Part shown: positions 1,149 to 28,700 of the stretch, one piece after another
How positions within the stretch are numbered: the first letter of the stretch is position 1
Layout of the letters: the number at the start of each line of letters is the position of its first letter
NCBI GenBank assembly: GCA_032718475.1
Contig: JAUCBJ010001333.1
Span: 1 to 45,689 of the forward strand
Direction: 5' to 3'
Source of the DNA: Nemertoderma westbladi
Lineage: Eukaryota > Animalia > Xenacoelomorpha
DNA length: 45,689 nt
Made by a program: the position numbers and the translations under genes
The notes under the pieces: model-generated
Seen by the model: the letters and a program-made list of their open reading frames with translations, nothing else
Told to the model about the DNA's origin: nothing
Databases searched by the model: none

Positions 1149-3603
1149 GTCAATAGAATAGGATACACAGTTTAATTTCTTCTCATAATAATCTGCTATT
1201 TTCCCCTTTGCACCTTTTTAATTGCTTCCGAGTACTCCCCTTATCTGTAATCCAGTCATCCGTCTGCTAGATTTTCTGAAAGGAATGTGTACCACACAGT
1301 ATAAATCGATATTGTCTGATTGGGTGATACCGGTTGGTTGTAGGTACTAAAGAATCACTTTCGATCTTGATAGAAACATTTTCTGACGTCGTTCTTTGTC
1401 CGCCCGTTTATCTCAGCCGTATACGACGAATATTCCAACCCTAATCTACCTTCGCCCCAATATATTCTTCATTGATCTCAATATATTTAGCATTAGTTTG
1501 TGCATTCCTACTCTACGGGGTAGTCCACGCCACCTGTAAGCGATATCGAACTCAGATGACGACACATTGAATCCTCGTTAACTTCCATCCCTTATCGCCT
1601 ATTAATAATTAATTAAGTGGATCCCGGTAGATTCTTTGTAATGCCAATCTCTTTGTTCACCGTCGATACTCCCTTTGAACCCTAGATGGCGCTGCTGTAT
1701 ATGCCGCCCACCTACAACGAATTACAATCGAATTGCCCGCGTTTGACTTGCCTCGCACTCTATGTACATTTACAAACATCTATTAATACGCTGCCGGGCT
1801 GCCGTTAATTACTTGACGTATTTCCCCCCCCCCCCCCAGTCCAGTATTGATACCTGATACCTGTATTTTTCAAATAATACAAATCAAAAATATGTATTTG
1901 TTCTCCCGTTTTTTTTTTAAACAATAGAATGTGTTGAGGTAACAGCGATGTCATTTAGTTGTTATCCATTTATTAAATAACCTGGATATAAAACTGATGG
2001 TAATAAATATAAACAATTAAAGTCTTTGTAACACATGGTACATACAGAGTACCCAGGTGCGGAAACCTTTTCAATTTTCCTTATTAATAAATGAGACCGT
2101 TGTATCTTTTCTTTCCTTCATCACTATAATGTTCCACAGTCGCCATATATCGGCCACAGGCTCAGGTGTTCAGTGTCAGTGATTGACCTCGGATTTTATC
2201 ATTTGTGTTTCTTTTTATTTGTTTAGTTATTTATGTTTGAATTCGTGCTAAAGCATAGATCGTACTAAAACTTTAGTTTGGAGCCCCTCAGGGACATTAA
2301 AAAAAGTTTTTTGATAAAAAAAAAAGTCGTACGAACGTATTATGTATAAAAAAATCATACATTATACATACTGTACCGCATGCTGCATACAGATGCCGTA
2401 TACATACTGCAGACCGTTTACAGACCCCACAAAGACACACGATGAGTATTCTAGCTCATATCTGACAGGTCTCAACTTAAACGGATCATAAATAACGGAT
2501 TTGACTTTCAGACATTTCGCGAGCGGCAGACTAGAGAACTGTAGACCGTCAGACCGACTTGAGTTAGCTGATATTGAGTTTCAACTACGGTATTTTATAT
2601 TGAATTGAAAAACCCGCTATTTATTTGTATTGTTTATTACCATTAATGTTTAGCCAATCGAAGTATAGTTAGTTAGTAAGTCGTTCGCGCGAGTTACTAT
2701 TGGAACGATGCGTAGCATCTATTGGACATGCTTTCTGCAAAATTTCGCTTTATTTCGTTTACAATTTTTGTAGGAGAAGATACATTTCCTACAAACAGTG
2801 TGTGTGTGTAATCTTGGCTAATTTACCATAAATACATCTAAAATAATGTACAAAACGTTCCAGTTTATTTATTCTACACTTCTTCCATTCCGAGACTAGT
2901 GCCTATAACTCAGGCTCCAGTCTGAACTCCTAGCGGATATACAGTAGGTGTTACTTGTAATAATGTGGTGTTTACTAGCGGCTCCCAACATTGAATCCGC
3001 TAAGGCACTTAATAATTAAATATTAATCCCTATTTGTTAGTGAATGAACTCACTGTACAACCCCATAAAAGCAGCATCGATTAATTTTTCCATCGTTCTT
3101 TCATTTCCTGTTGATTAGTTTTATAGCCTTGGGGGCTTGGCGTGCACACGAAATGTTTCTTTACATTACAAAGAAACTCCTAACCATGGATGACTCCAGA
3201 TGAAAGTAGATTAACGGTACAAATAGTGGGCCCATAACAACAGTATGAATAATTAAACGTACAAATATCCGCCTTCCTGGTTGCAATTGTAATAAATTGT
3301 TGATTTGCAAGCAGGTTGGGCGAGCTGTTTGTTCGTTTAATTATTTGTACTGTTCCTGTGGGCCCACTACGTGCACTCTTAATCTCCAATTCGTGTTTAT
3401 ATGCGGAATATAGTATTCCGTAGTGGTTCATATCAATCTTTGTTAAATTGGTGACATTCATGGCGAGATTAGAAGCGCAGTTCTACTGCTACCATCGGCC
3501 TACTGCATTGTAACTGCGCATTCAGAATTCTGTGATGGCTTAACGTAAACAATCTGTGCCACCACCATGCAATCCACAATTGCATGCTGTAATGCTGCGT
3601 ACT

Positions 3604-3824
3604 TTAAAAATGTTGTGCCGGCCTGTCGAAAAAATTGCGCCGCCACAACTCCCTATCCCCCATGACTTTCGCGAGATTATCCGCATCTTCAAGGCCAGTG
3701 TCCTTTAAGATGCGTCTCAAGAAAGTCATGGGCTGTCCACCATGCTTATTTTCTCCATGAGGCTGCCAAAGTACAAGATTTTGCACAAGCTGGTCCTCAA
3801 GGCGAAAGCCATGTCCTGCGAAGC
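3604..3824 (-). mobile_element. Short 3' fragment of an RTE-like LINE, same subfamily as 10527-11430
   Basis: Encodes NLVLWQPHG..GQPMTFLRRILKDTGLED. The nucleotides align by eye with 10525-10666. Confidence 0.75.
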
Positions 3825-3862
3825 TATTTATTAAATTCTGATTTATTAATTTTATTCTGCAG

Positions 3863-5854
3863 AAATTTAATTGAGCAGCAGGTGCGCAATCTTTCTGACT
3901 TCAATCGCGCAGTACGCGGACTCACCACTGGGGGGCGTGTGAACCCCGGCGGCAAACAGGAGCCAAAGACAGCGGACCGTTCGGACGGGAACCGAACTGA
4001 AACGGACCCGGACCTTGGTGTATACTCCTCTAGGAGTATGGGGGGCGCCCCCAACCAGACCCCTTCGCCCTCTGTGAGACCCTCCCCTGCACCTTTATAT
4101 AAGTCGAGAGTTCCAGAAGCGACTAAGACTCAGCCCATTATGCACGTACCAAAGAGTCCACGGGTCGCCCCACAGCATTCCTCCCCCGCTAAAAGTCCCC
4201 TAAAATCCCCCGATTCACCCGCCAATAGTTCAGGCAATTCCTGTCTGACCCCCGATTCATTGGACGTGTCATTCAGTAGCCCAGCAACCGAGTCATTGCC
4301 TAGCAACACATCTACTCGAAGATCGGAACGAGGTCAGCCCAGAATTGAATCTAACGGCGATATACAATCCAATACTCAGTTATCTACTGCCACTACTTGT
4401 GCTACATCAGTATCAATTAACCAACCGCCTTTATTATCACAAAAGCAACCTGTTTCAATTAGCCAACCTGTAACAGTTGCTTCAGAAACAGTTAACCAAA
4501 CTGATCAATTAAAACCAGCTGTCACAGTTAACCAAACTGATCAATTAAAACCAGCTGCCAAAGTTAACCAAACTGATCAATTAAAACCAGCTGCCACAGT
4601 TAACCAAACTGATCAATTAAAACCAGCTGCCACAGTTAACCAAACTGATCATTTAAAACCGGCTGCCACAGTTAACCAAACTGATCAATTAAAACCGGCT
4701 GCCACAGTTAACAAACGCGCAAAAGCTGGTAAAGAAACGGCACCACCGCTAAACGAAACGGTCGCAACTCCCGTGACCACTCCAACACGCACAGATGTTA
4801 ATGCATCTCGTATTCCCGTGATTATGTCCAAAAACAGTGGAAATAGGGCAAACCATCGACCCGCGGACACATCTAGCCTTCCCGCAAGGACCCCAACCCA
4901 CCCTGCACCAACCCCCGCCCACACTGCACCAAACCCCACCCACACTGCACCTACCACTAACCCCCCTGCACCAACCCCTGCCCACACAGCACCAACCCCA
5001 GCTCACAGTGCACCAACACCCGCCCAACCTGCACCAACCCCCACTACCACACCACCCACCCCCGCCCATCCTGCACCAACCCCCATCCACCCTGCACCCA
5101 CCCCCACTAGCACAGCACACACCCACCCTGCACCCACCACCAACCCCCTTGCTCCAACCAACACATCCCCAGCCCCCAGACCAGACCCCTCCGACTACCG
5201 CAGACCGGTCTGCCTCCCACGTAAACCCGACTCCCCTATCGCTTCCTCCCGCGCCTCTCCCGTGGCCACCGTCGCTCCCATCGTCGTGAAACCGAAGCCG
5301 AGCGTCACCACGGCAACGACGGTCAATGAGACGCTCGCTGTCCGGGAGACCACAGTAGTCGCGGATGCATTGGTCACCAAGGATACGAGGAACATCGTCG
5401 GATACGATTCGGTTCGCGGGCTGGAAGTTCGTCGAGTGGAACGCGTTCCTCAGCCGACGGAACGCGTTCCCAACCCCGCGGAGCGCGTTATCCAACCCAC
5501 CACCGTATCGACGCCTCTAGTTAAACCGATAGACACCCCCGTAACATCCACCGACGCGGGGGTACACGTCTCCCAGGGATACAAGTCGTCGGGATTCATT
5601 CGAGTTCCGCGGAATAGTCCGGAGGAACGCCGGAGTTCCACTCCGGACGCGGCGCGGATGGTAGAGACGAACCCGGACGAGATCGAGTCGATCGGAGTCG
5701 AAGAGGTGGTGAACGTGGCCGCTAGAGGGATACTCAAACGTCGGGAATCTCCGGCGCCCTCTAGGGACGGACGAACGCACTCAGCTTTGGGTGGCTCTAT
5801 ATCGGTGGATAGAGTGAGGGATTCCTTGGAGTGCCTCCAGGTGGCGTCTAATAG
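3863..5854 (+). CDS. CEP126: Internal exon A of a CEP126/KIAA1377-like gene (upstream exons not identified)
   Basis: Acceptor ttttattctgcAG at 3861-3862 and donor AG|GTTAGT at 5855 (phase 2); the frame is that of ORF 3882-5900. It ends RGILKRR...VRDSLECLQ, resembling the CEP126 xILKK...IRDSIEL block (recalled, not searched). Confidence 0.72.
4488..4713 (+). repeat. Coding 36-bp tandem repeat, ~6 copies (TVNQTDQLKPAA)
   Basis: Unit acagttaaccaaactgatcaattaaaaccagctgcc repeats in frame. Confidence 0.95.
4890..5185 (+). repeat. Degenerate ~21-bp coding repeat, Pro/Thr/His-rich (PAPTPAH-like)
   Basis: C/A-rich stretch with recurring gcaccaacccc; the translation shows a 7-aa period. Confidence 0.85.
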
Positions 5855-6710
5855 GTTAGTTAGAAATCGATTTCTAGTAGTACCTCTAGGTGGCGTGTAA
5901 TAGGTAAGCTAAAAATGATTCTTAGGAGTGCCTTTAGGTGGCGTCTAAAGGGATAGTCAGAAAATCGCCCATGTGAACTAGTGAAGAATACCAGGATTTA
6001 CGCCCATGTGAAGAATACCAGGATTTCACTTGTCGGTCGACTTTTTATTGGAGTTTTATTTATGAAAATTTTTATTTTTTTTAATTTATCCTTATTAAAT
6101 GTTTTATAGCGCTTATTTCTGTCTTATAAGCTGTACATATACTAATTCGTTTATTGGCCCATATGAAGAATACCAGACTTCCTACCGTTATATTTCACTT
6201 TGCATGTCGCCCATGTGAAGAATACCAGGTTTTAACCAAAACATAGGTTACATAAGGACTGAATTTAACCAAAACAATAAACGAATTAGTATATGTACAG
6301 CTTATAAGACAGAAATAAGCGCTATAAAACACTTAATAAAGATAAATTTAAAAAAATAAAAAATATTCATAAATAAAACTCCAATAAAAAGTCGACCGAA
6401 AAGTGAAATCCTGGTATTCTTCACGGGCGTAAATCCTGGTATTCTTCACATGTGCCATGTGTGTAAATCCTGGTATTATCATTACATTATTCACATGGGC
6501 GGTAGAACCTCTAGGTGGCGTCTAATAGGATAGTTAGGAATGATTCGGAGTGCCTCAAGGTGGCGTCTAAAAAGTTAATTAGAAGTGGATTCCTAGTAAT
6601 ACCTTTAGAGCATCTATTAGGTTAGTTAGGAATGGATTCCTTGGAGAGTCTCTAGGTGGCGTATAATAGATTTGTTAATTCGATATGTCTTGGAATGCCA
6701 CAGGTTGGTG
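5820..6710 (+). repeat. Degenerate 48-49-bp tandem array copied from the exon A/intron junction, ~7-8 copies, interrupted by a foldback element
   Basis: Unit gattccttggagtgcctccaggtggcgtctaatag|gttagttagaaatc recurs with substitutions at 5820-5965 and 6502-6710. Confidence 0.85.
5966..6501. mobile_element. Foldback/MITE-like palindromic element with ~190-bp inverted arms
   Basis: Termini cgcccatgtgaa...ttcacatgggcg. 5966-6156 is the near reverse complement of ~6275-6501. The sub-repeat cgcccatgtgaagaataccagg recurs. No TSD seen. Confidence 0.85.
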
Positions 6711-6793: not shown

Positions 6794-7328
6794 ATCCCAG
6801 AAGAAATCCGTTCGGTTTACCGACGAGAACGGTTCTAGAACGCCGCTGGCATTTTTTGACGACGCCTCCTCCGCGCATCGCTACCCTCCCAACTCTGGCC
6901 GACCCACGGTCGCCGGGGTAAACCGACCCCAGATGACCCCGACCCGCACCGTTACCATAACGACCCCGTCCTGGGACCCGCGAGCCCGGCTCTCCAAGCA
7001 GGCCCTGGCCGCTAAGGGGCCAACGCACGCCGCCGCTAGGGGGACACCATCTGGAGGCGCGGCCACCCGGAAGAAACAACAGATAGGTCTAGACATCGGT
7101 AGGGGTCCCGATGGTGACGTAACGAATGGCGACCTCGAGTTCCCCGGGCAACCAACTCAACAAAGAAACAACGTCATAAAACACAACGGCGGGTTAGATG
7201 GTGACGTCATCGGTGCTATGCAACCGGATAATCTCCAGAAAACGCCGACGGATGAGGAAATAAATATATTATGGGATAAAGTTCGCAGTTGCCTTGACCG
7301 ACGCGGTAATGTGCTGCAGTACAGCCAG
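6794..7328 (+). CDS. CEP126: Exon B of the CEP126-like gene
   Basis: Acceptor ttcttaacgCAG at 6791-6793. The phase-2 join reads ..ASNR-SQKKSVRFTDE. Contains LQKTPTDEEINILWDKVRSCL. Donor CAG|GTAGGT at 7329 (phase 0). Confidence 0.75.
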
Positions 7329-10300
7329 GTAGGTTGAGTGATAGACGCGGTAATGTGCTGCAGTACAGCCAGGTAGGTTGAGTGATAGACGCGGTAATGT
7401 GCTGCAGTACAGCCAGGTAGGTTGAGTGATAGACGCGGTAATGTGCTGCAGTACAGCCAGGTAGGTTGAGTGATAGACGCGGTAATGTGCTGCAGTACAG
7501 CCAGGTAGGTTGAGTGATAGACGCGGTAATGTGCTGCAGTACAGCCAGGTAGGTTGAGTGATAGACGCGGTAATGTGCTGCAGTACAGCCAGGTAGGTTG
7601 AGTGATAGACGCGGTAATGTGCTGCAGTACAGCCAGGTAGGTTGAGTGATAGACGCGGTAATGTGCTGCAGTACAGCCAGGTAGGTTGAGTGATAGACGC
7701 GGTAATGTGCTGCAGTACAGCCAGGTAGGTTGAGTGATAGACGCGGTAATGTGCTGCAGTACAGCCAGGTAGGTTGAGTGATAGACGCGGTAATGTGCTG
7801 CAGTACAGCCAGGTAGGTTGAGTGATAGACGCGGTAATGTGCTGCAGTACAGCCAGGTAGGTTGAGTGATAGACGCGGTAATGTACTGCAGTACAGCCAG
7901 GTAGGTTGAGTGATAGACGCGGTAATGTGCTGCAGTACAGCCAGGTAGGTTGAGTGATAGACGCGGTAATGTGCTGCAGTACAGCCAGGTAGGTTGAGTG
8001 ATAGACGCGGTAATGTGCTGCAGTACAGCCAGGTAGGTTGAGTGATAGACGCGGTAATGTGCTGCAGTACAGCCAGGTAGGTTGAGTGATAGACGCGGTA
8101 ATGTGCTGCAGTACAGCCAGGTAGGTTGAGTGATAGACGCGGTAATGTGCTGCAGTACAGCCAGGTAGGTTGAGTGATAGACGCGGTAATGTGCTGCAGT
8201 ACAGCCAGGTAGGTTGAGTGATAGACGCGGTAATGTGCTGCAGTACAGCCAGGTAGGTTGAGTGATAGACGCGGTAATGTGCTGCAGTACAGCCAGGTAG
8301 GTTGAGTGATAGACGCGGTAATGTGCTGCAGTACAGCCAGGTAGGTTGAGTGATAGACGCGGTAATGTGCTGCAGTACAGCCAGGTAGGTTGAGTGATAG
8401 ACGCGGTAATGTGCTGCAGTACAGCCAGGTAGGTTGAGTGATAGACGCGGTAATGTGCTGCAGTACAGCCAGGTAGGTTGAGTGATAGACGCGGTAATGT
8501 GCTGCAGTACAGCCAGGTAGGTTGAGTGATAGACGCGGTAATGTGCTGCAGTACAGCCAGGTAGGTTGAGTGATAGACGCGGTAATGTGCTGCAGTACAG
8601 CCAGGTAGGTTGAGTGATAGACGCGGTAATGTGCTGCAGTACAGCCAGGTAGGTTGAGTGATAGACGCGGTAATGTGCTGCAGTACAGCCAGGTAGGTTG
8701 AGTGATAGACGCGGTAATGTGCTGCAGTACAGCCAGGTAGGTTGAGTGATAGACGCGGTAATGTGCTGCAGTACAGCCAGGTAGGTTGAGTGATAGACGC
8801 GGTAATGTGCTGCAGTACAGCCAGGTAGGTTGAGTGATAGACGCGGTAATGTGCTGCAGTACAGCCAGGTAGGTTGAGTGATAGACGCGGTAATGTGCTG
8901 CAGTACAGCCAGGTAGGTTGAGTGATAGACGCGGTAATGTGCTGCAGTACAGCCAGGTAGGTTGAGTGATAGACGCGGTAATGTGCTGCAGTACAGCCAG
9001 GTAGGTTGAGTGATAGACGCGGTAATGTGCTGCAGTACAGCCAGGTAGGTTGAGTGATAGACGCGGTAATGTGCTGCAGTACAGCCAGGTAGGTTGAGTG
9101 ATAGACGCGGTAATGTGCTGCAGTACAGCCAGGTAGGTTGAGTGATAGACGCGGTAATGTGCTGCAGTACAGCCAGGTAGGTTGAGTGACAGACGCGGTA
9201 ATGTGCTGCAGTACAGCCAGGTAGGTTGAGTGATAGACGCGGTAATGTGCTGCAGTACAGCCAGGTAGGTTGAGTGATAGACGCGGTAATGTGCTGCAGT
9301 ACAGCCAGGTAGGTTGAGTGATAGACGCGGTAATGTGCTGCAGTACAGCCAGGTAGGTTGAGTGATAGACGCGGTAATGTGCTGCAGTACAGCCAGGTAG
9401 GTTGAGTGATAGACGCGGTAATGTGCTGCAGTACAGCCAGGTAGGTTGAGTGATAGACGCGGTAATGTGCTGCAGTACAGCCAGGTAGGTTGAGTGATAG
9501 ACGCGGTAATGTGCTGCAGTACAGCCAGGTAGGTTGAGTGATAGACGCGGTAATGTGCTGCAGTACAGCCAGGTAGGTTGAGTGATAGACGCGGTAATGT
9601 GCTGCAGTACAGCCAGGTAGGTTGAGTGATAGACGCGGTAATGTGCTGCAGTACAGCCAGGTAGGTTGAGTGATAGACGCGGTAATGTGCTGCAGTACAG
9701 CCAGGTAGGTTGAGTGATAGACGCGGTAATGTGCTGCAGTACAGCCAGGTAGGTTGAGTGATAGACGCGGTAATGTGCTGCAGTACAGCCAGGTAGGTTG
9801 AGTGATAGACGCGGTAATGTGCTGCAGTACAGCCAGGTAGGTTGAGTGATAGACGCGGTAATGTGCTGCAGTACAGCCAGGTAGGTTGAGTGATAGACGC
9901 GGTAATGTGCTGCAGTACAGCCAGGTAGGTTGAGTGATAGACGCGGTAATGTGCTGCAGTACAGCCAGGTAGGTTGAGTGATAGACGCGGTAATGTGCTG
10001 CAGTACAGCCAGGTAGGTTGAGTGATAGACGCGGTAATGTGCTGCAGTACAGCCAGGTAGGTTGAGTGATAGACGCGGTAATGTGCTGCAGTACAGCCAG
10101 GTAGGTTGAGTGATAGACGCGGTAATGTGCTGCAGTACAGCCAGGTAGGTTGAGTGATAGACGCGGTAATGTGCTGCAGTACAGCCAGGTAGGTTGAGTG
10201 ATAGACGCGGCAATGTGCTGCAGTACAGCCAGGTAGGTTGAGTGATAGACGCGGTAATGTGCTGCAGTACAGCCAGGTAGGTTGAGTGATAGACGCGGTA

Positions 10301-10526
10301 ATGTGCTGCAGTACAGCCAGGTAGGTTGAGTGATAGACGCGGTAATGTGCTGCAGTACAGCCAGGTAGGTTGAGTGATAGACGCGGTAATGTGCTGCAGT
10401 ACAGCCAGGTAGGTTGAGTGATAGACGCGGTAATGTGCTGCAGTACAGCCAGGTAGGTTGAGTGATAGACGCGGTAATGTGCTGCAGTACAGCCAGGTAG
10501 GTTGAGTGATAAACGCGGTAATGTGC
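7300..10526 (+). repeat. Near-perfect 44-bp tandem array, ~73 copies, spanning the exon B donor
   Basis: Unit gacgcggtaatgtgctgcagtacagccag|gtaggttgagtgata. I saw substitutions only at 7885, 9190, 10211 and 10512. Confidence 0.98.
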
Positions 10527-11555
10527 ATCTTCAAGTCCAGTGTCCTTTAGGAGGCGTCTCACGAAAGTCATGGGCTGTCAACCATGCTTATTTTTTCATG
10601 GGGCTGCCAAAGCACAAGATTATGCACTGGCTTGTCCTCAGGGCGAAACCAATGTCCTGCAAAGCGGAGGCGGCTTTGTTCTAGTGTCAAGCTTGGGGGA
10701 ACCAATGAGACACCTCCAATGTTATATAGTGTCTGGTTGGAGATGTGTGCATTGTACTTGACACAGTGAACCCGGCGTAGCATTCTTGTGAATGTGTCAT
10801 CCAGAGATTTGGTGTCCTCAGCAGTTAGAGCCCAGCATGGACACTCATAGAGGAGTACTGGAACTACTGCTGCTCTAAATAATCGAACCTTAAGTTTCCG
10901 ATTAATTCTGTGTGACTTCCAAATTCTGGAAAGCATATTCAAGGCTGCCCATGCCTTTCCCTTACGTATTCGAAGGTCCTCACCTGACTTCCGGATCCAT
11001 GATCCCAGGTTACAGAAGTCATCCACATGCTCAAGCATACCATCCTTTGAGCTTATGCTCATCCTATCAGAGACTTGCTGGAGGACTTTCAAAGTTAACT
11101 GTCAAAATGTTGGTCTTTTTGGAGTTAATAAAAAGATCAACACTAGAAGCAGCATGTTCTAATGAGCTGAGGAGCCGTTGGGCTCCCTCTAGTGATTCTG
11201 AGAGTACTCCTAAGTCATCAGCAAAGTCTAGATCAGTTAGGTACTTGGCAGGATTTCCTCGACTTCTGGAGCCAGTAGGTGGAGTTATCATCACCCCATC
11301 ACCATTATGATGATCTAAGGACATGCGTAGAACATAGTCAACCACAATTATGAACAAGAATGGCGCAAGTGTGTCTCCCTGGAGGACGCCCCATAACACT
11401 TCCAATGGTTCTGTGTCACCGTCAGCAGTATGCCACATGCTCAAGCATACCATCCTTTGAGCTTATGCTCATGCGATCACACAGTTCCTAAGGACTTCCA
11501 AACTTAACTGTCAAAATTTTGGTGATTCTGACTTCTGAGAGTACTCCTAAATCCA
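10527..11555 (-). mobile_element. Degenerate RTE-like LINE RT fragment plus a short second rearranged copy (~11432-11555)
   Basis: GVLQGDTLAPFLF, LTDLDFADDL, INSKKT, LFRAAVVPVLLY and RLRFAGHWFR across frameshifts. 11432-11555 repeats parts of 11022-11215. Confidence 0.9.
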
Positions 11556-11632
11556 TTAAATTCGGGTCGATAACGGTTAGACTTACTACTGATTGGCAAT
11601 CTCCTCGTTTATCTCAGCTGTTTCCTTTCCAG

Positions 11633-11774
11633 ATGACGTCAGACGTTTGGGCCCAACGAGTTTCGGCAGCCAATCAGAGGAACCCGCCAACGTTAACGCA
11701 GCACTATATAGATGGGAGTAATTTAATACCGGGAATCGGTAGACAGAATACAGTGGCACCAGTGCAGCACAATG
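11633..11774 (+). CDS. CEP126: Exon C of the CEP126-like gene (shortest form, first donor)
   Basis: Acceptor tttcctttccAG at 11631-11632, phase 0. Reads MTSDVWAQR...HYIDGSNL...VQHN. Donor G|GTAAGG at 11775 (phase 1). Confidence 0.72.
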
Positions 11775-13203
11775 GTAAGGGAGTGGGTATACAGATTACA
11801 GCTGCACCAGTGCAGCACAATGGTAAGGGAGTGGGTAGACAGAATACAGTAGCACCAGTGCAGCACAATGGTAAGGGAATGGGTAGACAGAATACAGTAG
11901 CACCAGTGCAGCACAATGGTAAGGGAGTGGGTAGACAGAATACAGTAGCACCAGTGCAGCACAATGGTAAGGGAGTGGGTAGACAGAATACAGTAGCACC
12001 AGTGCAGCACAATGGTAAGGGAGTGGGTATACAGAATACAGTAGCACCAGTGCAGCACAATGGTAAGGGAGTGGGTAGACAGAATACAGTAGCACCAGTG
12101 CAGCACAATGGTAAGGGAGTGGGTATACAGAATACAGTAGCACCAGTGCAGCACAATGGTAAGGGAGTGGGTATACAGAATACAGTAGCACCAGTGCAGC
12201 ACAATGGTAAGGGAGTGGGTAGACAGAATACAGTAGCACCAGTGCAGCACAATGGTAAGGGAGTGGGTATACAGAATACAGCTGCACCAGTGCAGCACAA
12301 TGGTAAGGGAGTGGGTATACAGAATACAGTAGCACCAGTGCAGCACAATGGTAAGGGAGTGGGTAGACAGAATACTGTAGCATCAGTGCAGCACAATGGT
12401 AAGGGAGTGGGTAAACAGAATACAGTAGCATTAGTGCAGCACAATGGTAAGGGAGTGGGTAGACAGAATACAGTAGCACCAGTGCAGCACAATGGTAAGG
12501 GAGTGGGTAGACAGAATACAGTAGCATCAGTGCAGCACAATGGTAAGGGAGTGGGTAGACAGAATACAGTAGCACCAGTGCAGCACAATCGTAAGGGAGT
12601 GGGTAGACAGAATACAGTAGCACCAGTGCAGCACAATGGTAAGGGAGTGGGTAGACAGAATACAGTAGCATCAGTGCAGCACAATGGTAAGGGAGTGGGT
12701 AAACAGAATACAGTAGCACCAGTGCAGCACAATGGTAAGGGAGTGGGTATACAGAATACAGTAGCACCAGTGCAGCACAATGGTAAGGGAGTGGGTATAC
12801 AGAATACAGTGGCACCAGTGCAGCACAATGGTAAGGGAGTGGGTAGACAGAATACAGCTGCACCAGTGCAGCACAATGGTAAGGGAGTGGGTATACAGAA
12901 TACAGTAGCACCAGTGCAGCACAATGGTAAGGGAGTGGGTATACAGAATACAGTGGCACCAGTGCAGCACAATGGTAAGGGAGTGGGTATACAGAATACA
13001 GTGGCACCAGTGCAGCACAATGGTAAGGGAGTGGGTAGACAGAATACAGTAGCACCAGTGCAGCACAATGGTAAGGGAGTGGGTAGACAGAATACAGTAG
13101 CATCAGTGCAGCACAATGGTAAGGGAGTGGGTAGACAGAATACAATAGCACCAGTGCAGCACAATGGTAAGGGAGTGGGTATGCAGAATACAGCCGCACC
13201 AGT
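11738..13203 (+). repeat. 48-bp tandem array, ~30.5 copies, spanning the exon C donor and open in frame
   Basis: Unit ggtagacagaatacagtagcaccagtgcagcacaatg|gtaagggagtg. Donors run from 11775 to 13167, a distance of 29 x 48 bp. Confidence 0.98.
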
Positions 13204-13481
13204 TGTGTAATATAATACCAGTATTCTTTCAGTTTTAGTATGTCCTAGTCTTGCATTCGGTCCTTATCGGTACCGCAGTTTAAGGGATACATTGAAATGT
13301 TCTTATATAGTCAATAATGATTTTCTCATTAATAAAATTATGTGTATATTTAATATGAGAAGGCTTTTGACCCAATATGAATATAGTATCATAGTGTATG
13401 TATTATTTATAGTCGAATGATATATATTTTGTTTTAACTAATATTATTATATATTTAACTATATGTGTTTCTCATTTTCAG

Positions 13482-13606
13482 TTTCTCCTTTTAAATATAA
13501 GAAGCAAGTTGCCCAGGACCTGACCAATTACCGCCTCAGTACTGGTCTTTTACAAAGACAGCAACAGTCGCGCACGGGTGCCATGGCAACAGCTCTACCA
13601 ACACCG
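13482..13606 (+). CDS. CEP126: Exon D of the CEP126-like gene
   Basis: Acceptor ctcattttcAG ending 13481. The phase-1 join is open: VSPFKYKKQVAQDLTNYRLSTGLLQRQQQSRTGAMATALPTP. Consensus donor GTAAGT at 13607 (phase 0). Confidence 0.72.
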
Positions 13607-14292
13607 GTAAGTAACGACATAAACGTGTCGTAACTTATAATTTATTATCGGGAAACGAATACCCAATATATTTATTCGTGAGCTCATCGTGTCATGCTGC
13701 TTTGGCTCTCGCCAACTCCACTTAAGATGTTCTTCAATTTTAGTTGGCTATATTTATACGTTCGATAGGTAAATTTTTATAATTTTTAGCCACTTTCATT
13801 TAAGGCCTTAAGAAACTTGTTATAAAAATGGGTTTAAATTTCTCCGTGTCGCACTGACAGTTGTTGCCAACCTACCGTTCACTACCCCCCACCCGGATGT
13901 GCATTACTAACCAATATTGTCAATAAACACCATCTCCCTTAATACTACAATCATTTTTAGCAAGTCGCCCCCCATAATATTTTTCAAATTTCAATCATAT
14001 GCTACGAAATTTGGTATGATGATGGTTAAAGACAAGTTCTCTTACTGCTGACAGAGCGGATTGTTTTATTTTCTGAGCTATTTCGATGCATAGAACTGGT
14101 AGCATTTGATTGAAATTTTAAAAATTAATTAATTAATTAATTTAATAAATAAATTAATTTGATGAATTATTTCACTATAAGGTAGCATTTGTAGTTTAAC
14201 TTTGACGTAAAAACTTTTGAAAATCCGACGTATTTTGATTAAGTTACAGTAATGTAATATGCCTATTCATATTTGTACACATAAAACCCTTA

Positions 14293-14372
14293 GGTACTCT
14301 CGTGGCGTAGTGGTCAGATGGTTAAGGCGTTGGTTACATTACGTAGGTTACGAGTTCGAATCCCAGTCGGGA
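14293..14372 (+). mobile_element. tRNA-derived SINE head or pseudo-tRNA
   Basis: A-box-like tggcgtagtgg and B-box gagttcgaatcc; I could not build a clean cloverleaf. Confidence 0.5.
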
Positions 14373-17427: not shown

Positions 17428-18246
17428 TCGACCCCTTAGAACCATAACCAGCCATGTCCACATTTTGTCAAAATTGAGATAGGAATGCTGAACAGAAAGA
17501 AGTACTATCCATGAAAAAGGTCTCAAGTCCATCCATATCTGCATTCAACTAGCACATCTGGCAAGTCGGTAATTTCCATGTCCAAACCATGAATTTCTGA
17601 TAAATGAGCCATGTCCAATGCTTTTACAATAATGAGCCATGTCCAATGCTTTTACAATAATGAGCCATGTCCAATGCTTTTACAATAATGAGCCATGTTC
17701 ATACAATAATGAGCCATGTTCAATGCTTTTACAATAATGAGCCATGTTCATACAATAATGAGTCATGTCCAATGCTTTTACAATAATGAGCCATGTTCAA
17801 TGCTTTTACAATAATGAGCCATGTTCATTGCTTTTACAATAATGAGCCATGTCCAATGCTTTTACAATAATGAGCCATGTTCATTGCTTTTACAATAATG
17901 AGCCATGTTCATTGCTTTTACAATAATGAGCCATGTCCATGGACGTGGCTCATTTTGTCACATATATATTTTACAAATAGTTGGGATTTCAATTATGTAA
18001 GAATGAGCCATGTCCAAAAATTTTAGTAGTATAGTTTTGGAAAATTGGCTGGTTTTCACAATTGGCAACACATATTCCAAACTTTTTGATGTCACACCGT
18101 GTAGTAGCGGTTGGGCCATGAATTTACATTGAAATAACCTTGTTATAATGATGTGTCGATTTATAGCGGCACTTAAAAAACTTTAAACGCGTTTTTCTCG
18201 GAATGACAAAATGTGGACATGGCTTGTTATGGTTCTAAAGAGGTGA
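17428..18246. mobile_element. Non-autonomous TIR DNA transposon with an internal 28-bp minisatellite
   Basis: Left ccccttagaaccataaccagccatgtccacattttgtca matches right tgacaaaatgtggacatggcttgttatggttctaaagagg. About 12 copies of aatgagccatgtccaatgcttttacaat lie at 17603-17940. Confidence 0.85.
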
Positions 18247-18654: not shown

Positions 18655-19974
18655 TCAGTTAAAGGAATACCATTGGGTTACCGCGATACCTGGACCCGCT
18701 ACAACTTTCCTCCAATAGGTTTGTGTGCGCGCTTGTTTCCCTGGCAACGTTATAGTTCCCACTTTGGCCGTCCCAATCAGATGCTGTTCCTCCATCACCT
18801 GGACAACCAATGACAAGTGACCTCGTTCCGCCGTTTGCGATACATTAAAGGTGATGACGTCACTCCATACGGGATTGCCGGTTTCGCTGTGTCGGGCAGT
18901 ACAACGCTGACTGTCTGCGGGTTTGGAGGCGTTTGAACTGTAAAGTTTCGCGATTACGAAGTATTTCTTGGTTCCGAGTGAGTTGTGCGGCAAATTGAGT
19001 CCCTTTCGAATAGTAACTCGGAGTATTCTCGACAGCGTCAGGTACTGAAGGGTGAGTAGCAGCTGGGGAGGGCATCTCACTACCGGGTCCCGGAAGTCCC
19101 CCCGTTGTAAACTTGTCCCATCTTCGTCCCACTCCCTCTTAACGTCTCTGAGACTCAACGACGCTTCCTTAGCGACCGTCTCCATACCGTTGTTACCACG
19201 GGTTACCAGCAAGCGAATCAGCACTCGTCCCCGCTCGACGTCCCTTTCCGTCAACCCCGAGAACTGGAAGCACTGGCGGAATGACGTAATAGCGTTGCTA
19301 GGTAACAACGGGGTAACCGCTTCGGTGGCCTCGAATTCGTCGAAGGTCGGCACGATTTTAAGTTTCACTCTGTACGTGACGTCACACTGCGCGTCGACGT
19401 TTACCAGATGTATTATTGCCAAGGTTACGGTCCACCGTTCGTCTTCCTCGGAGTCAAACACTACGAGACAATCGATGTAAGGCGTACTGCTGTCTTCGGT
19501 TAGACGTCTTTTTATTGGCTGGCCGTCTTTGTCCAATCGGATGTTGTCGTCCGAACCTCTTTTGCTGTCCTTCTCGCGGTTCCCCAACAATCGTTTCATT
19601 CCGACTAGAACAGATGAATTACTTTCAGTTTCGCTGACAATCTTTATCGACTTTGTTTTGTCTTGCGTCGTCGATTGCGTTGCTGTTGTTTTGTTTCTAT
19701 TTTTCGTTCCGGTATCTAGCGAGTTGTCTGCCGATTCGCCGCTATCGCTGTTTCCGTGGTAACGCGACGTGACCCGTTCGGTTCGCGTTGGGCTAGTGGC
19801 CCAGCTGTAGGGGCTCACCCCGGGGGGTAGAATGAAGGATATACTCCGGCGGTCGCGGTCCCGTCTCGATCGACTCCTACTGCGTCGGTAGACCAGCCGG
19901 GCCGCCGCCAACACCACAGCAACCAATACAACAGTCACTATTATGGAGACTACGGTAGCAACCACGGTCACCAT
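18655..19974 (-). CDS. Intronless synaptotagmin-like protein (N-terminal TM, linker, two C2-like domains), 439 aa, nested antisense in the host intron
   Basis: Hydrophobic N-terminus followed by a basic stop-transfer stretch. C2B-like PQLLLTLQYL..RILRVTIRKGLNL, GNPVWSDVITFNV and final TYWRKVVAGPGIAVTQWYSF. ATG sits in an accATGg context. Confidence 0.85.
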   Translation of the reverse strand: MVTVVATVVSIIVTVVLVAVVLAAARLVYRRSRSRSRRDRDRRSISFILPPGVSPYSWATSPTRTERVTSRYHGNSDSGESADNSLDTGTKNRNKTTATQSTTQDKTKSIKIVSETESNSSVLVGMKRLLGNREKDSKRGSDDNIRLDKDGQPIKRRLTEDSSTPYIDCLVVFDSEEDERWTVTLAIIHLVNVDAQCDVTYRVKLKIVPTFDEFEATEAVTPLLPSNAITSFRQCFQFSGLTERDVERGRVLIRLLVTRGNNGMETVAKEASLSLRDVKREWDEDGTSLQRGDFRDPVVRCPPQLLLTLQYLTLSRILRVTIRKGLNLPHNSLGTKKYFVIAKLYSSNASKPADSQRCTARHSETGNPVWSDVITFNVSQTAERGHLSLVVQVMEEQHLIGTAKVGTITLPGKQARTQTYWRKVVAGPGIAVTQWYSFN

Positions 19975-20639
19975 GGTTTCAGTTTATACAAAGTTTGCTA
20001 ATAATCAATGAATAATCAATACTTATATAGTATTCTATAATAATTAAATATTTAATATTTTTTCTGGATGAATGAAAAAAAAAAAAAAAAAAATTAAATT
20101 TACCGTTTAATATTGTATTTTTATTATTTATTACAACTTCTATATGGTAATCCTTAAAAATGTGTTAAAAATTCGTCCAATTTCTTTCTCAAAAAATAAT
20201 AAATAAGTAATTGGAAAGTTTTTAACGAAATAAAGTTTATTTTTACAGTAATAAACTTTAACAAAATAAATACCGGTTTGGTTAAAGTATACTAATAGGA
20301 CGGTGGAATTTAAATCCTGTTTTAATATAATTATTTGAAACTAATATCCAGTTAATACTTCATTAACACAATTATTATATTAAATCTGCAATAATAAATG
20401 ATAATTTATTGTATTTCCCCTCACGTGTGGAACCTATGTTTCCGTTATCTCTCACGATTAGGTGGTTTTTTAGTCTTAACAAATAAACTGTAATCAGTTG
20501 TAGGTTTGTATTACTCATATTGGTGCATTTATTATCGACACAAGATATGCTATGTACAAACCAACCTGGCCATCATGTGTTACACGGGGTTCTGTCTAAA
20601 ATATGTGGGATTGTTATGAACTGCAAACATACGTGCTGT

Positions 20640-22140: not shown

Positions 22141-22539
22141 TGTTTCTTAGGAAAATCTTTTCGTATAAAATAATATATTCTGATCTATTTTTTATTTGTA
22201 TTTTTTACATTTAATTTTTACTAATTTTTTGTTCTATTCCGTATAATGAATATCGTGGTATTGTAAGATATACACACATAAGGGAATATACACATCACCT
22301 ATACAAGGTTTAATAATAATCCTAACCGTACGAACGACAAACGTCAGATACTGTGTAAATTACAGGTACCTGTAGTGTTAACACCGGTACTACCTGCAGT
22401 AAATCATTGAAAAATTGTTGCTAGGATAATTAAATAGCGGCATATTTAAGGGGGGGGGGGGGGGGGGGGGGGGGTGGGGGTGGCGCTACTTCAATAATTT
22501 TTTGCAAAATTTTTTTATTTCATCTAGAGCAGATTTTTA

Positions 22540-22930: not shown

Positions 22931-24412
22931 GCGGGAAGGTTCAAACTTTAAAGGCAATTTATCTCGGAATGGAATTTTTTCATTCCTGCGAAATTAAAAA
23001 TGTTACTCTTCTGCCAACTTTTAATATTTTTTGATGAAATTTGGACACAGTAATCACAAGCTTGGTTTGGTGTCTTCAAACGTATTGGACAGAATCTCAA
23101 AATTTTGATCCTAACTCATTTTACTGGCTTCGAAATATGGAAAATTCTAATTTTTTGAAAAAAAAAATTAAAATAATTAATTAATTTGGTAATAAAATGT
23201 GAAATAATCAATATCATAAAAATTTTACCAATAATTTTATTCAACACTATATCCTAATTATGTATACGAAATAACTAGTTATATAACTAATGTTTGTTCG
23301 AAGAGTGTTTTTTAGTGTTTGCCAGGGGTTACTCGCTTTACTGTATATATTGTTATCGTAATAAATTGATGTTTTTATCCTTTGTTCCAATCAAATTTAC
23401 TTTCAACTACCCCTGGTTGTTGCTAGGGAAATGGTACTTTGTTGCGATGAAAACTTTTTCCCTGTTTAAATTGTTATACTAATCAAGTTATTATCAACGG
23501 GATTGTTTCTTTATGGCGAGTTTAATAATAGATGAGACCAAATTCACCCGGTTGATATTAAAATGTCACCAATGTAGCTAGGGAACTAGTCAATTATTTT
23601 ACTACACAGGGTCAGTTTAATCTACCTACTGTATAGTGACATTTTTCTGCTTTTGTCCTGTAATTAACGACTTATCCGTGTTTTAGTCTTAAGCGACGAT
23701 ACGAAGATGAATTCGGTATAAACTCTTACTACATACAGCACCCTCTACCGCTGTAGAGATAAACATTAAAGTATGATTTGTGAATTCTCTAATTGACGAT
23801 AGATGGCGAGCTATTATCGCCTAGCAACATAATATACAATTTATAATACATATGTATTTCAAACTGTAGGCTTATGTCAATAACCAAACCTAGGCAATGC
23901 ATACTGTAATGTATTAATTAAGATTATAAAATTTTGAAAGAATCAGTTTTTGCACGTTTATTTACCTTTAGGAATAAATTAATAAACGATATGTGCGGAA
24001 TATATAAACGTTTTTATTTTCATTTAATCTGTTAATAATACGTTATTTATTGGGTCTCAACAGTACGTAGTTACCGTTACTGTAAATAGGCCTATACTAT
24101 AAAATGTGATACTGCATCCCATAGCCTAGTCAAAATAGGCCCAGTCCAGTCTTAGATAAATTGCAACACACTGTACTAGTAGTTTTTCGTAGTTTTTCTA
24201 GTTTTAACGGTAGTTGTTATATTTATTAGTTATTTAGGTTATATTTAACACCCTATCCCAAATCACCCCATAATTCGGATTGTAAACACACCATGGCAAC
24301 ATAATAGTCTGACAACGATAATCTATCTTTGACCTAGCCCCCATAGACCCCCCCCCCCCCCACCCCCCCCCTCCCCCCCCTTGACTCACTAGAGAATACG
24401 TTTTTAAACACG

Positions 24413-25278: not shown

Positions 25279-25702
25279 CCTAAACTATAGATACGACCCG
25301 CCAAGCTGCTGCAAATCCCTTAAATTTAGTTATTTCTCTTAGATAGAACCCCTGAAACAATAGGTCTAGCTCGTCGAAAGTACTTGGCCCTAAATAAAAT
25401 AATGTCCTCTTTCAGATGATACAAATAAAAATGTAATAATAGCTCCAGTAGTTTTTGAGATATTAAGAATTTCTGGCACCCATATTTTTTCCTCACGATA
25501 TTTTTACTCGCGATATTGTTACACAATTACCACGTATTTCTGTACTGTCGGCATCTTGGTAGGTTATATATTGTCATTAATCAACCTAATTATATTATAA
25601 TCAAATAATATTTATATTCATTTACCGTTATTCTTGATTTATTCATAAATTATATACTTAATGATGGAGTGAAAAACTTGATTTTAAGCACAAAACGTGA
25701 CA

Positions 25703-28700
25703 ATGATTAACGTGCGAGTGAACAGCCCTCCCAGAGGCCCACTCACAGAGAGATCTCAAATTCCTAAACATCCCGCTATACAGGATGGGGTGAGAGCCAA
25801 GAGTGGAAATCCGGCTGGCACACGGATGAAAAGGAATAAGGCCCCGCGCAATCCTAGATTAGTAAACCCCGCGAAGTTGGAAGGTTTATCGGAAGTCAAA
25901 CTCAAACCATCGGTATACATGCAGAGGCAACTAATGACCACTGAACAACTACTCAATTCAACTGTTGAGGTGCAAGTCACTAAAATTATTCAACTCTTGG
26001 ATATTGGTCAAAAATCCTTTCAAAAATTGTGTTCATTACCTCTTGAGAGTTGCCTCTTTCAACCATTCCCGTCTGAGGTGACATTCCAGCACTGCCAACC
26101 TTGTCAACCATACCAGGTCGGGTTGCAGCTACGCAATATGGACCACGTTCCAAGATTAGTTAAAGTCAATTGTGAAGATTCGTCTTATTTCAAGATCGTT
26201 AGACCTCCTCATGCCGGAGATAAGGTAGCTCCAGGAATGGCTGTCACTTATAAAATTGTCTTTATAGGCGATGAATCCAAAGACTACTATTATGAAGTTG
26301 AAGTTTTTACTGAACGTGAACTTTTTATTGTACCAGTTCGAGTAATTGGCCCCCGAGCGATACTAGACTTTCCTGATGATGTTGATATGTTAATGTGCCC
26401 TGTGAAACACACAACAACCAGAACATTGCTGATACGAAACTTGGGAAACAGGGAAGCCAGGTTTAATGTCGAGTCGCATTTACCTTTTCAGGTTGAGCCA
26501 GCCTCTGCTACTCTAGATGTTGGGCACTGTATGCAGGTAAACGTTGCTTTCCATCCTCTCAACACTGGCGAACATACCACTTATATCATTGTCCATTATG
26601 ACACTGGTGAAGATGTATACATGAAGGTTTTTGCTTCAGCCAGTGATGCTAATATCCGCATAGATAAGTCGACAATTCATATGCCTAAAACATATATTGG
26701 TTTGAGAAGTGAAAGATTTTTCAGCATCTCCAATAGAAGTGATATTATTGTAAACTTTCAATGGAAGCGTTATGAAACAGAAGCTGAGGAAGATGCTGAG
26801 ATAAATCAAGTTGTGAGTAGTTTACACAAAGCTTTAAGCAGGGATAATCTTGACTCCGAAAACGAAGAAGACAAGCTTTTTACGGAAAGGCAACGTATAA
26901 AACAATTAACTCCAAGTAAGGATGATTTCGCCTTTCTGGACAATGAGTATTCTATCACTCCTATCAATGGTGAGATATGGCCTGGCCAATCTGCTGAATG
27001 TAGCATTGTATTTCAACCAGAGGTGGTTGTTGAATCAAATCTTGCCGCTTGGTTGGATGTGTCAGGCGTGGAGAAGAGACTAGGTGTCAAGATATATGGT
27101 GAGGGTGTCGGTCCATGGTGTGAGTTGAGTTATGATGAATTGGATGTTGGTTATGTGTTTATGAATTCATCTTCTTCTTATGAGATTATCCTAAAAAATC
27201 GAGGTCAGATAGATGCGTATTATAGAATTCTATCTGACAACTCATTCTGTCAGTTTTCTCCTGAGGAGAATCCAGTTAATGCCGGAGGGTATCAGGCAAT
27301 TCAATTAATGGTTTGCTCTCCAGTAATTGGCGTCTTTAAAGAAGAATTTTTCTTCGAAATAAACGACAGTCCTGACAAACTGAGATTATCTGTTACAGGG
27401 ACAATCGCTGGGCCTACATTTAATTTTGATGTCAGTGAAATCAATTTTGGAAACGTTGCTTTTGGATTTCCACAAACTAAGGTTTTTGAACTTACAAATA
27501 CATCGTATATTCCAATGAATTTTGAGCTAAGAGTCCCTACAGATGGTAGTGATGTTGTGGCTGTTGAAGCAGAAAGTGATGAGGCAGTTTGGAATTATAA
27601 TATAGACCCATTCACTAAACCGAAAGAGTTTACCATTATTCCAGATAGTGGAACTTTAGCCCCAATGGATTCGTGCCCAGTTACTATAACTATGTTGAGC
27701 AATACGGCAAAAAAATATGTGAATGACACACTAGTTGTCAGAATTGTTGATATGGCACAAGACGTTGCCTTGCTGCCTATTAAATGTCGTTGTTATGTCC
27801 CAGAATTATATATTACAAACCCAATTATAGAATATGGGAAATGTTTTATGCATTCTCCAACTGCGGGATTTCTTACCATTACTAACCCAACCGAATTTCC
27901 TGCTAAATACAACTTAATTGAGCAAAGCCATATGGAGTCATCAATGATTCTTTACGAATCTTCCGCCCCAAGTGGTATTATTGCAGCAAATTCCTCCTTT
28001 GATCTTCCAATTACAATTAGAGCACAATTGAAGGACCACCTACAGGTTGGGGCATATTTGTCTACATTTGGTTCACCAGATCGACCAATGCAAGTTATCC
28101 TTAGGGCATTTGGTCTAGGTCCCGTCGTGTTTGTAGCATCAAATGAATTGGATTATGGTACTATTCCTGTGCTCACAGAAGCCATCAAACGAGTAACCCT
28201 TGAGAACGAATCACCCATAGCTGCTACCTATACCTGTTTTTTAATGCAAAGCACAAATTCCGTGTTTTCAGTGTATCCTGCCCAAGGAATATTACATCCC
28301 AAGTCAACCCTGCAGATAAACGTTGTTTGTTTTATTAATGACGACATTAAATGCAAAGATCAATTAAAAATAGTGTTTGTGGATGGGTTAACCCATGTTA
28401 TCCCATTGTATGCAAAAGGAATTGGGACCACTATTGAGATCACCCCGAAGTTAGTCCCTTCTTATGACTTGGGGCCCCAATTCAGTACTTTACCAATTAA
28501 AAATGAACTACTTATAAAGAATTCTGGCAGAAGAGCGCAATGTCTTATATTCAAAACTAAAGGATATTCATTATCTAAGACTTCGCAAGTGACTATGGAC
28601 CCATTTGATATTAAGAAATCTGAAAGTGGTGTTTCTTTATCACCAACATTTGCTATAAACCCATGCCGCATAGAATTACAACCAGGGGAATCGATTACTG

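Follow-up and report, generated by a model that had tools for sequence, protein, structure and literature searches.

A thirty-fold in-frame splice-donor minisatellite in a gene of Nemertoderma westbladi, probably spliced from its first donor

Contig JAUCBJ010001333.1 of the Nemertoderma westbladi assembly GCA_032718475.1 carries a gene in which the 5' splice site of one exon, here called exon C, is repeated thirty times within a 48-bp minisatellite. The window, that is, the whole stretch of DNA that was analysed, comprises positions 1 to 45,689 of the forward strand. The locus raises the question of which of these donors are used. Every one of them is in frame with the following exon, exon D, and a sequence-only reading had proposed that they might form a length dial for the protein, each donor adding further copies of a 16-residue peptide, while allowing that the array could equally be neutral with only the first donor in use. 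The answer favored here, with a probability of about 0.7, is that this is a neutral boundary array, spliced essentially from the first donor alone. The basis for first-donor use is a set of published analogues together with an out-of-frame sister array in the same gene, and the exons were placed by homology and splice consensus.

The features of exon C, its array and the junction with exon D are as follows.

11633..11774, plus strand: predicted exon C, starting in phase 0; the first copy of the repeat is exonic and consists of the exon's final 44 nt (11731-11774).
Splice signals of exon C, plus strand, read from the sequence: acceptor ending in ...tttcctttccag before 11633; donor G/GTAAGG after 11774 (here and below, a slash marks the junction).
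11731..13203, plus strand: the 48-bp minisatellite, with a unit consisting of the 44-nt tail of exon C and GTAA (Tandem Repeats Finder, TRF, and a table of units).
11775..11780, plus strand: first donor, GTAAGG, predicted from published analogues to be the donor in use.
11823..13172, plus strand: the other 29 GTAAGG donors, at 48-bp intervals (starting at 11823 ... 13167), all in phase 1.
13208..13210, plus strand: TAA closing the read-through frame, from the sequence of the open reading frame (ORF) 11492..13210.
13204..13481, plus strand: unique, AT-rich 3' part of intron C, in which TRF finds no tandem repeat; acceptor ending in ...ttctcattttcag.
13482..13606, plus strand: predicted exon D, entered by a phase-1 junction; donor GTAAGT at 13607.

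TRF reports a single array at 11731-13203, with a period of 48, 30.7 copies, 96% matches, 0% indels and a score of 2666; the array that had been placed at 11738-13210 from the sequence is the same object. In the TRF register the unit reads GGGAGTGGG...CAATGGTAA, which corresponds to the last 44 nt of exon C followed by the intron bases GTAA. Between 11775 and 13167 there are 30 copies of the hexamer GTAAGG, out of 41 in the whole window, and all 29 spacings are 48 bp. The donor at 12591 is weakened by a G>C change in its -1 base, at 12590. A 34-nt core of the unit has 29 matches with at most 3 mismatches, all within the array, and none in 100 shuffles. Neither this unit nor the 44-bp unit of the sister array described below is found elsewhere in the window, and a dispersed satellite is thereby ruled out.

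Exon C, preceded by an acceptor AG at 11631-11632, lies in a frame that stays open from 11492 to the TAA at 13208-13210. Because the exon ends with G 11774 as the first base of a codon, and exon D, starting at 13482 after the AG at 13480-13481, supplies TT to that split codon, each of the 30 donors falls in phase 1. Use of donor n would lengthen the protein by 16n residues, over a range of 0 to 464. The repeat peptide is GKGVG(R/I/K)QNTVAPVQHN, with the further changes V>M, N>I, V>A, V>I, P>S, P>L and G>R in individual copies. The original description of the array is borne out by the donor spacing and the open frame, which confirm a stop-free unit of 48 bp or 16 codons with GTAAGG in phase 1 in all 30 copies; its arithmetic is likewise correct, with every donor matching the frame of exon D and with read-through ending at 13208-13210. 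However, the open frame is nearly automatic, since 44 of the 48 unit bases come from an exon frame that is already open, with GTAA added to them; it needs just a unit length divisible by three, which has roughly a 1-in-3 chance.

By its layout, the array can be classed as a genuine boundary minisatellite (also called a 'mirage' or splice-donor minisatellite), which is a known class. The first unit lies across the predicted exon-intron boundary, the donor is reiterated in 30 of 30 units, and the remaining units would be intronic, upstream of the one acceptor at 13480-13481; between the end of the array and that acceptor there are 278 nt of unique sequence. Constraint among the units and a repeat in relatives, as would be expected of a coding tandem repeat, do not appear. 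For a described type of repeat it is a little unusual, with 44 nt of in-frame exon context in each copy and with three consecutive donors of the gene affected. The array probably originated when the final 44 exon bases and GTAA were duplicated in tandem, through neutral slippage or unequal exchange, and concerted evolution would then have homogenised the inner units. It would be removed within a 1707-nt intron by splicing from the first donor (11774^13482), and the 29 later donors would be silent, or used at a low level at most.

Among the inner units (n=29), 33 of 1392 cells are variant (2.4%); these fall into 12 distinct types and affect 10 positions. Divergence from the consensus is greater in the edge copies: 3 of 48 positions differ in the first (11731-11778), and 13 of 48 in the partial copy that ends the array. 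Minisatellites that undergo concerted evolution typically look like this, homogeneous inside and diverged at the edges. Assembly of near-identical tandem units is difficult, and a mis-assembled mirage has been described from a draft genome (Ebner et al., PMC3087553). However, the 12 variant types follow an ordered, non-periodic pattern that is unlike that of a collapsed or artificially extended array, and both flanks of the array are unique; it is extremely improbable that the copy number, or the array itself, has been distorted by assembly.

The variants give little reason to think that the donors or the peptide are being preserved. It had been suggested that substitutions among the copies spare the donor hexamer. 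Indeed none of the 12 variant types falls within GTAAGG, but this sparing is not significant (P = (42/48)^12 = 0.20), and one variant hits the -1 base. Considered in the coding frame, the variant types comprise 3 synonymous and 9 non-synonymous changes, where neutrality predicts a synonymous fraction of 0.243; the data reject an omega of 0.2 (p = 0.011) but not omegas of 0.5 to 1, with small power from 12 events. The lack of any stop-creating change among the unit variants is uninformative (p = 0.65). The RNA fold of four units is no more stable than that of shuffled sequences (z = -0.11), and the later donors are therefore not masked by RNA structure. Nothing in the sequence gives a sign of maintenance for the later donors or for the repeat peptide. 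The sense strand is G-rich, and explanations of the array by R-loops or G-runs are speculation.

The gene that hosts the array belongs to an unnamed family, and its relatives bear on whether the repeat could be a coding one. The exon that led to this family is the one upstream of exon C.

6794..7328, plus strand: predicted exon B, carrying the best conserved motif of the family, TPTDEEINILWDKVRSCL.

A phmmer search with exon B (full HMMER scan) detected the protein P0001 with an E-value of 1.7e-5 (3e-13 by BLASTP), and P0001 in turn recruited 17 more proteins. Exons A and B have no match in Pfam, so that the host gene has no Pfam family, and a search of exon B against longer proteins found none. 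In the family, the motifs follow the order RLDRTPTDEEINWLWDKVRTCL, a variable linker, YIDG..LAPQFR..TRV and then KKVSMDTLN.Y.RR.SLLNQRK, and this order is kept in the host gene. In the alignment, exon B corresponds to the first motif, exon C to QHYIDGSNLIPGIGRQNTVAPVQHN, and exon D, with KKQVAQDLTNY...LLQRQQ, to KKVSMDTLNTY..LLNQRK. The homology of exon C is supported by the multiple alignment and by tblastn matches to related loci (L014, 2.2e-4; L025, 3.8e-4; L007, 7.1e-4). When exon C or exon D was compared singly with P0001 by BLASTP, no match was significant, and exon D is therefore placed by the multiple alignment only.

The segment that is repeated in the array is single-copy in all 15 aligned homologues; none of the 15 repeats it. 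The amplified segment can thus be taken as ancestral coding sequence, and borrowing of the exon tail from a pre-existing array is ruled out by its homology to the coding sequence of relatives. The homologue linker is variable and low in complexity, and the distance between the aspartates of YIDG and SMD ranges from 29 to 48 residues in the 15 homologues. Splicing from the first donor gives a spacing of 32 residues, inside this range; the second donor gives 48, and later donors give at least 64. The read-through translation has no match among proteins of 288-919 residues in a collection of 5.8 billion proteins.

Further relatives were taken from metagenome contigs, giving 40 related loci, of which about 23 contain the whole stretch as one uninterrupted match. 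Two loci have phase-1 introns near the stretch, one in the G of YIDG (L010) and one seven codons further on (L021). No array was detected by TRF at either of these intron boundaries, and the arrays of the 40 loci sit in low-complexity coding parts. Because identity is 50% or less, these relatives cannot date the array or the intron. Phase-1 introns are seen to split a G codon at three sites within about 20 codons: YID-G/ in L010, LLT-G/ in L021 and QHN-G/ in the window (compared regions L010:3690-4145, L021:1260-1800 and window 11732-11775). The idea that the intron slid by one unit relative to L021 is ruled out, as the offset is 42 nt and not 48.

The most informative comparison for donor choice comes from the gene itself. 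Two more arrays lie across its upstream donors, the older of them in two parts.

7300..10526, plus strand: sister array of 73.3 copies of a 44-bp unit, across the donor of exon B (TRF).
5820..5963, plus strand: 5' part of an old sister array, with three copies of about 48-49 bp (repeat family D1, 81-83% identity to the first copy).
6494..6681, plus strand: 3' part of the old sister array, with four more, degenerate copies (repeat families D1 and D4).

The exon B array has a unit of 29 exon and 15 intron bases, and exon B ends at 7328 with CAG/GTAGGT. The array contains 73 CAGGTAGGT sites, and hence 73 identical donors, with 72 spacings of 44 and variants in 3 of 3212 cells; a search for its unit gave 73 matches against 0 expected. 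Its 3' end directly abuts a retrotransposon fragment at about 10527. Stop codons are present in all three plus-strand frames, and use of later donors would bring them into the transcript. A functional transcript must therefore use the first of the 73 identical exon B donors. The 44-bp array lies upstream in the same transcript and acts as a logical control. There are two alternatives: the organism reliably selects the first among many identical donors, or no full-length protein is made from this allele. A length dial at the 48-bp array operates in neither case.

The second branch of this alternative, in which the allele or the gene is non-functional and the arrays and transposon pieces are debris in a decaying or dispensable gene, is considered very improbable. 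It draws some support from the presence of three arrays, a foldback element and a long interspersed nuclear element (LINE) fragment within about 8 kb of one gene, and from the near-identity of the 44-bp units, which indicates that the array is of very recent origin or strongly homogenised, and that selection may not have acted on it so far. However, exons A to D have open frames, matching phases and good splice consensus, and the family motifs are intact.

The old array has its first copy across the predicted donor of exon A, AATAG/GTTAGT, with the junction between 5854 and 5855. About seven copies are left, at 74-83% identity to the first. The GT has been lost in 3 of the 6 downstream copies, and the ORF 3666..5900 ends in copy 2, with a stop before the second donor. 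This array shows that later donors decay, and it illustrates the end state of such arrays; the out-of-frame array with 73 donors provides an internal control in the same transcript. Three consecutive donors of one gene thus appear to have seeded boundary arrays of very different ages. The unit is divisible by three in one of the three, which is the chance expectation.

Several described systems are comparable to the 48-bp array. In the 37-bp variable number tandem repeat (VNTR) of human F7 intron 7 (IVS7), as presented by Borensztajn et al. 2006 (PMC1557585), the first unit lies across the exon 7 boundary and there are 5-9 identical donors. According to the same account only the most upstream donor is used, even though the others are functional and the fifth and sixth would create no stop (PMC1557585). 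The present array is similar in that the first unit spans the boundary, identical pseudo-donors precede one acceptor and some later donors are free of stops. It differs in having 30 copies rather than 5-9, in combining 44 exon bases with 4 intron bases rather than 4 with 33, and in having every donor in frame; moreover, donor use in F7 was tested with 50 constructs, whereas for the 48-bp array it is predicted. For human LMNB2 (100-bp unit) and PDGF (81 bp), the authentic donor only is listed as used (PMC1557585).

Two other human precedents in that account behave somewhat differently. In IFI6 (6-16) intron 2, with 25 pseudo-sites, and in the CBS intron 13 VNTR, the two nearest pseudo-sites are used as well, and for IFI6 use of the two pseudo-sites nearest to the authentic donor is described as constitutive (PMC1557585). 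Like the array in exon C, these are boundary-spanning arrays with many pseudo-donors, and they are the nearest precedent for the idea of a ladder of isoforms, although usage in them extends to just the first two extra sites. The 25-bp VNTR of human ABCA7 intron 18 includes the exon 18 donor; the first donor is canonical, with minor retention of one unit, and the length of the array correlates with splicing and with disease risk, as reported by De Roeck et al. 2018 (PMC5954066). The present array likewise includes the donor of its exon, but the ABCA7 unit is not a multiple of three and its retention shifts the frame, whereas 48 bp correspond to 16 codons.

The 'mirages' of the amphioxus globin genes (BflGb6/BflGb9) are repeats that span boundaries at several loci, with splicing reported as undisturbed and with concerted evolution and diverged edge copies (Ebner et al. 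2010, PMC3087553). The 48-bp array shares with them the boundary-spanning position, the concerted evolution and the diverged edges. The globin mirages have units of 150-160 bp in few copies, whereas the present gene has units of 44-49 bp, repeated as many as 73 times, at three donors in succession. A mirage minisatellite is also said to occur in amphioxus Adh3, reportedly the subject of work by Canestro et al. in 2002.

Several points weigh against exclusive use of the first donor. When two identical strong 5' splice sites lie at least 45 nt apart, use falls almost exclusively on the intron-proximal one, according to the experiments of Hodson et al. 2012 (PMC3413131), and their constructs resemble the present array in having identical strong donors at least 45 nt apart that compete for one acceptor. 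An intron from the last donor would be 315 nt long, and the intron-proximal rule would predict an insert of 464 residues. Each donor here repeats 44 nt of exon context, compared with 4 exon bases in F7. The use of two extra donors in IFI6 and CBS (PMC1557585) is a further difficulty, and the precedents for donor choice are all from vertebrates, while donor use in this gene is a matter of prediction throughout. On the other side, the Hodson et al. constructs are artificial, carry two sites and were assayed in vitro and in HeLa cells (PMC3413131), and their outcome, a win for the intron-proximal site, runs contrary to that in natural arrays. The natural arrays were weighed above the two-site constructs and the sister array agrees with them, but the conflict is still real.

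If the intron-proximal rule did hold here, the last donor at 13167, or many of the donors, would be used, and a coding repeat of up to 464 residues would be translated in bulk. This outcome is in keeping with the rule for identical strong sites at least 45 nt apart (PMC3413131), with the shortness of the last-donor intron (315 nt), with a frame that is open through all units without an indel, and with a homologue linker that is variable and low in complexity. It is nevertheless judged highly unlikely. The same rule applied to the 44-bp array would put stops in every transcript, the natural F7 array, as described, behaves in the opposite way (PMC1557585), the units are without coding constraint, the repeat is found in 0 of 15 homologues, and the read-through translation is unmatched among proteins of 288-919 residues. 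The proposal of a length dial therefore keeps its in-frame arithmetic and little else: coding constraint is lacking, the sparing of the hexamer has p = 0.20, no homologue among the 15 repeats the segment, the open frame is nearly automatic, and at the 44-bp sister array later donors give stops. Of the two branches that the sequence-only reading had offered, the neutral one, with only the first donor used, is better supported.

A more limited ladder, in which the first donor is dominant and the next one or two are also used at a low level to add 16 or 32 residues, is unlikely, but it has direct precedents in the two nearest pseudo-sites that are described as used besides the authentic donor in IFI6 and CBS (PMC1557585) and in the ABCA7 isoform that keeps one unit (PMC5954066). 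Its products would escape nonsense-mediated decay because they stay in frame, and they would amount to noise or to a minor source of variation; the product with 16 extra residues would still fit the widest homologue spacing, 48. However, arrays with units of 37-100 bp use the first donor alone and the unit here is 48 bp, whereas extra donor use has been seen with a shorter unit (ABCA7, 25 bp).

For a neutral boundary array spliced from its first donor, this is a better specimen than most, with 30 in-frame donors that each have an identical exon context of 44 nt. Donor choice in it would set the rule of the most upstream donor, as in F7, against the intron-proximal rule of the model substrates, in a gene of invertebrate type whose ancestral introns are short. 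Should later donors be used after all, the locus would show how duplication of a boundary adds repeats to a protein.

The arrays also raise the question of whether their positions are due to chance. The three donor-seeded arrays (about 48 bp x 7, 48 bp x 30.7 and 44 bp x 73) all have units that consist mostly of exon tail with a few intron bases, and the arrays of the host gene are all either in-frame exonic or donor-spanning, none being purely intronic. A placement model for three donor arrays with none intronic gives p of about 0.006-0.02, a crude and post hoc value. It is conceivable, but quite doubtful, that this gene's 5' splice junctions act as hot spots for the birth of minisatellites, with mutation linked to the junction, and that the 48-bp array is a coding repeat at birth. 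If so, the process would not be random slippage, and later donors would add 16-residue modules to a disordered linker. Exon A contains in-frame coding repeats of its own, one of 36 bp x 6.4 (TVNQTDQLKPAA) and one of 21/63 bp (PAPTPAHTA-like), at 4488-4716 and 4890-5159.

Pieces of transposons lie between and beside the arrays.

5964..6500, no strand assigned: foldback insertion, resembling a miniature inverted-repeat transposable element, which splits the old sister array (inverted repeats I1-I5, arms of up to 88 nt, 97% complementary).
10530..11462, minus strand: fragment of a non-long-terminal-repeat retrotransposon (LINE) in intron B (Pfam RVT_1, 8.4e-10; DUF6451, 6.5e-7).

A second copy of the 3' tail of the LINE fragment is present at 3603-3824, just 5' of exon A. 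Contigs from run X1 (share 0.06; the kind of run is a guess) cover just the transposon pieces, at 10533-11430, 3603-3824, 5778-5814 and 6043-6423. One of them, of 855 nt, matches 10533-11387 with 36 differences and 2 gaps, and a relative of the LINE element is abundant in the run (word depth about 113). The absence of these contigs from exons A to D is a blank and carries no evidence on expression.

The remaining features of the window lie beyond exon D. A tRNA-like stretch at 14290-14370 (ggtactctcgtggcgtagtggtc...gttcgaatccc), in which ARAGORN called no tRNA, is possibly a tRNA-derived short interspersed nuclear element. An AT-rich intergenic region contains a 28-bp x 12.5 minisatellite at 17603-17939, with higher-order periods of 49 and 77 bp, in which no donor-like motif was noted. 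An open frame of 442 residues on the minus strand, at 18655-19983, includes a C2 domain (4.1e-8) and represents a neighboring gene that converges on the host gene. A homologue of HYDIN is encoded on the plus strand at 25688-41236 by a single uninterrupted ORF of 5182 residues, with the domains HYDIN/CFA65/VesB Ig (6.7e-69), Hydin_ADK (1.9e-29), and ASH and CFAP65 Ig. An intronless HYDIN homologue of this size is odd beside an intron-bearing neighbor, and it might represent a retrogene; the 1.2 kb that follow its stop codon showed no poly(A) tail. Finally, two complementary homopolymers, a run of 31 G (22450-22480, 93% pure) and a run of 33 C (24348-24380, 87% pure), 1.9 kb apart, flank an AT-rich stretch.

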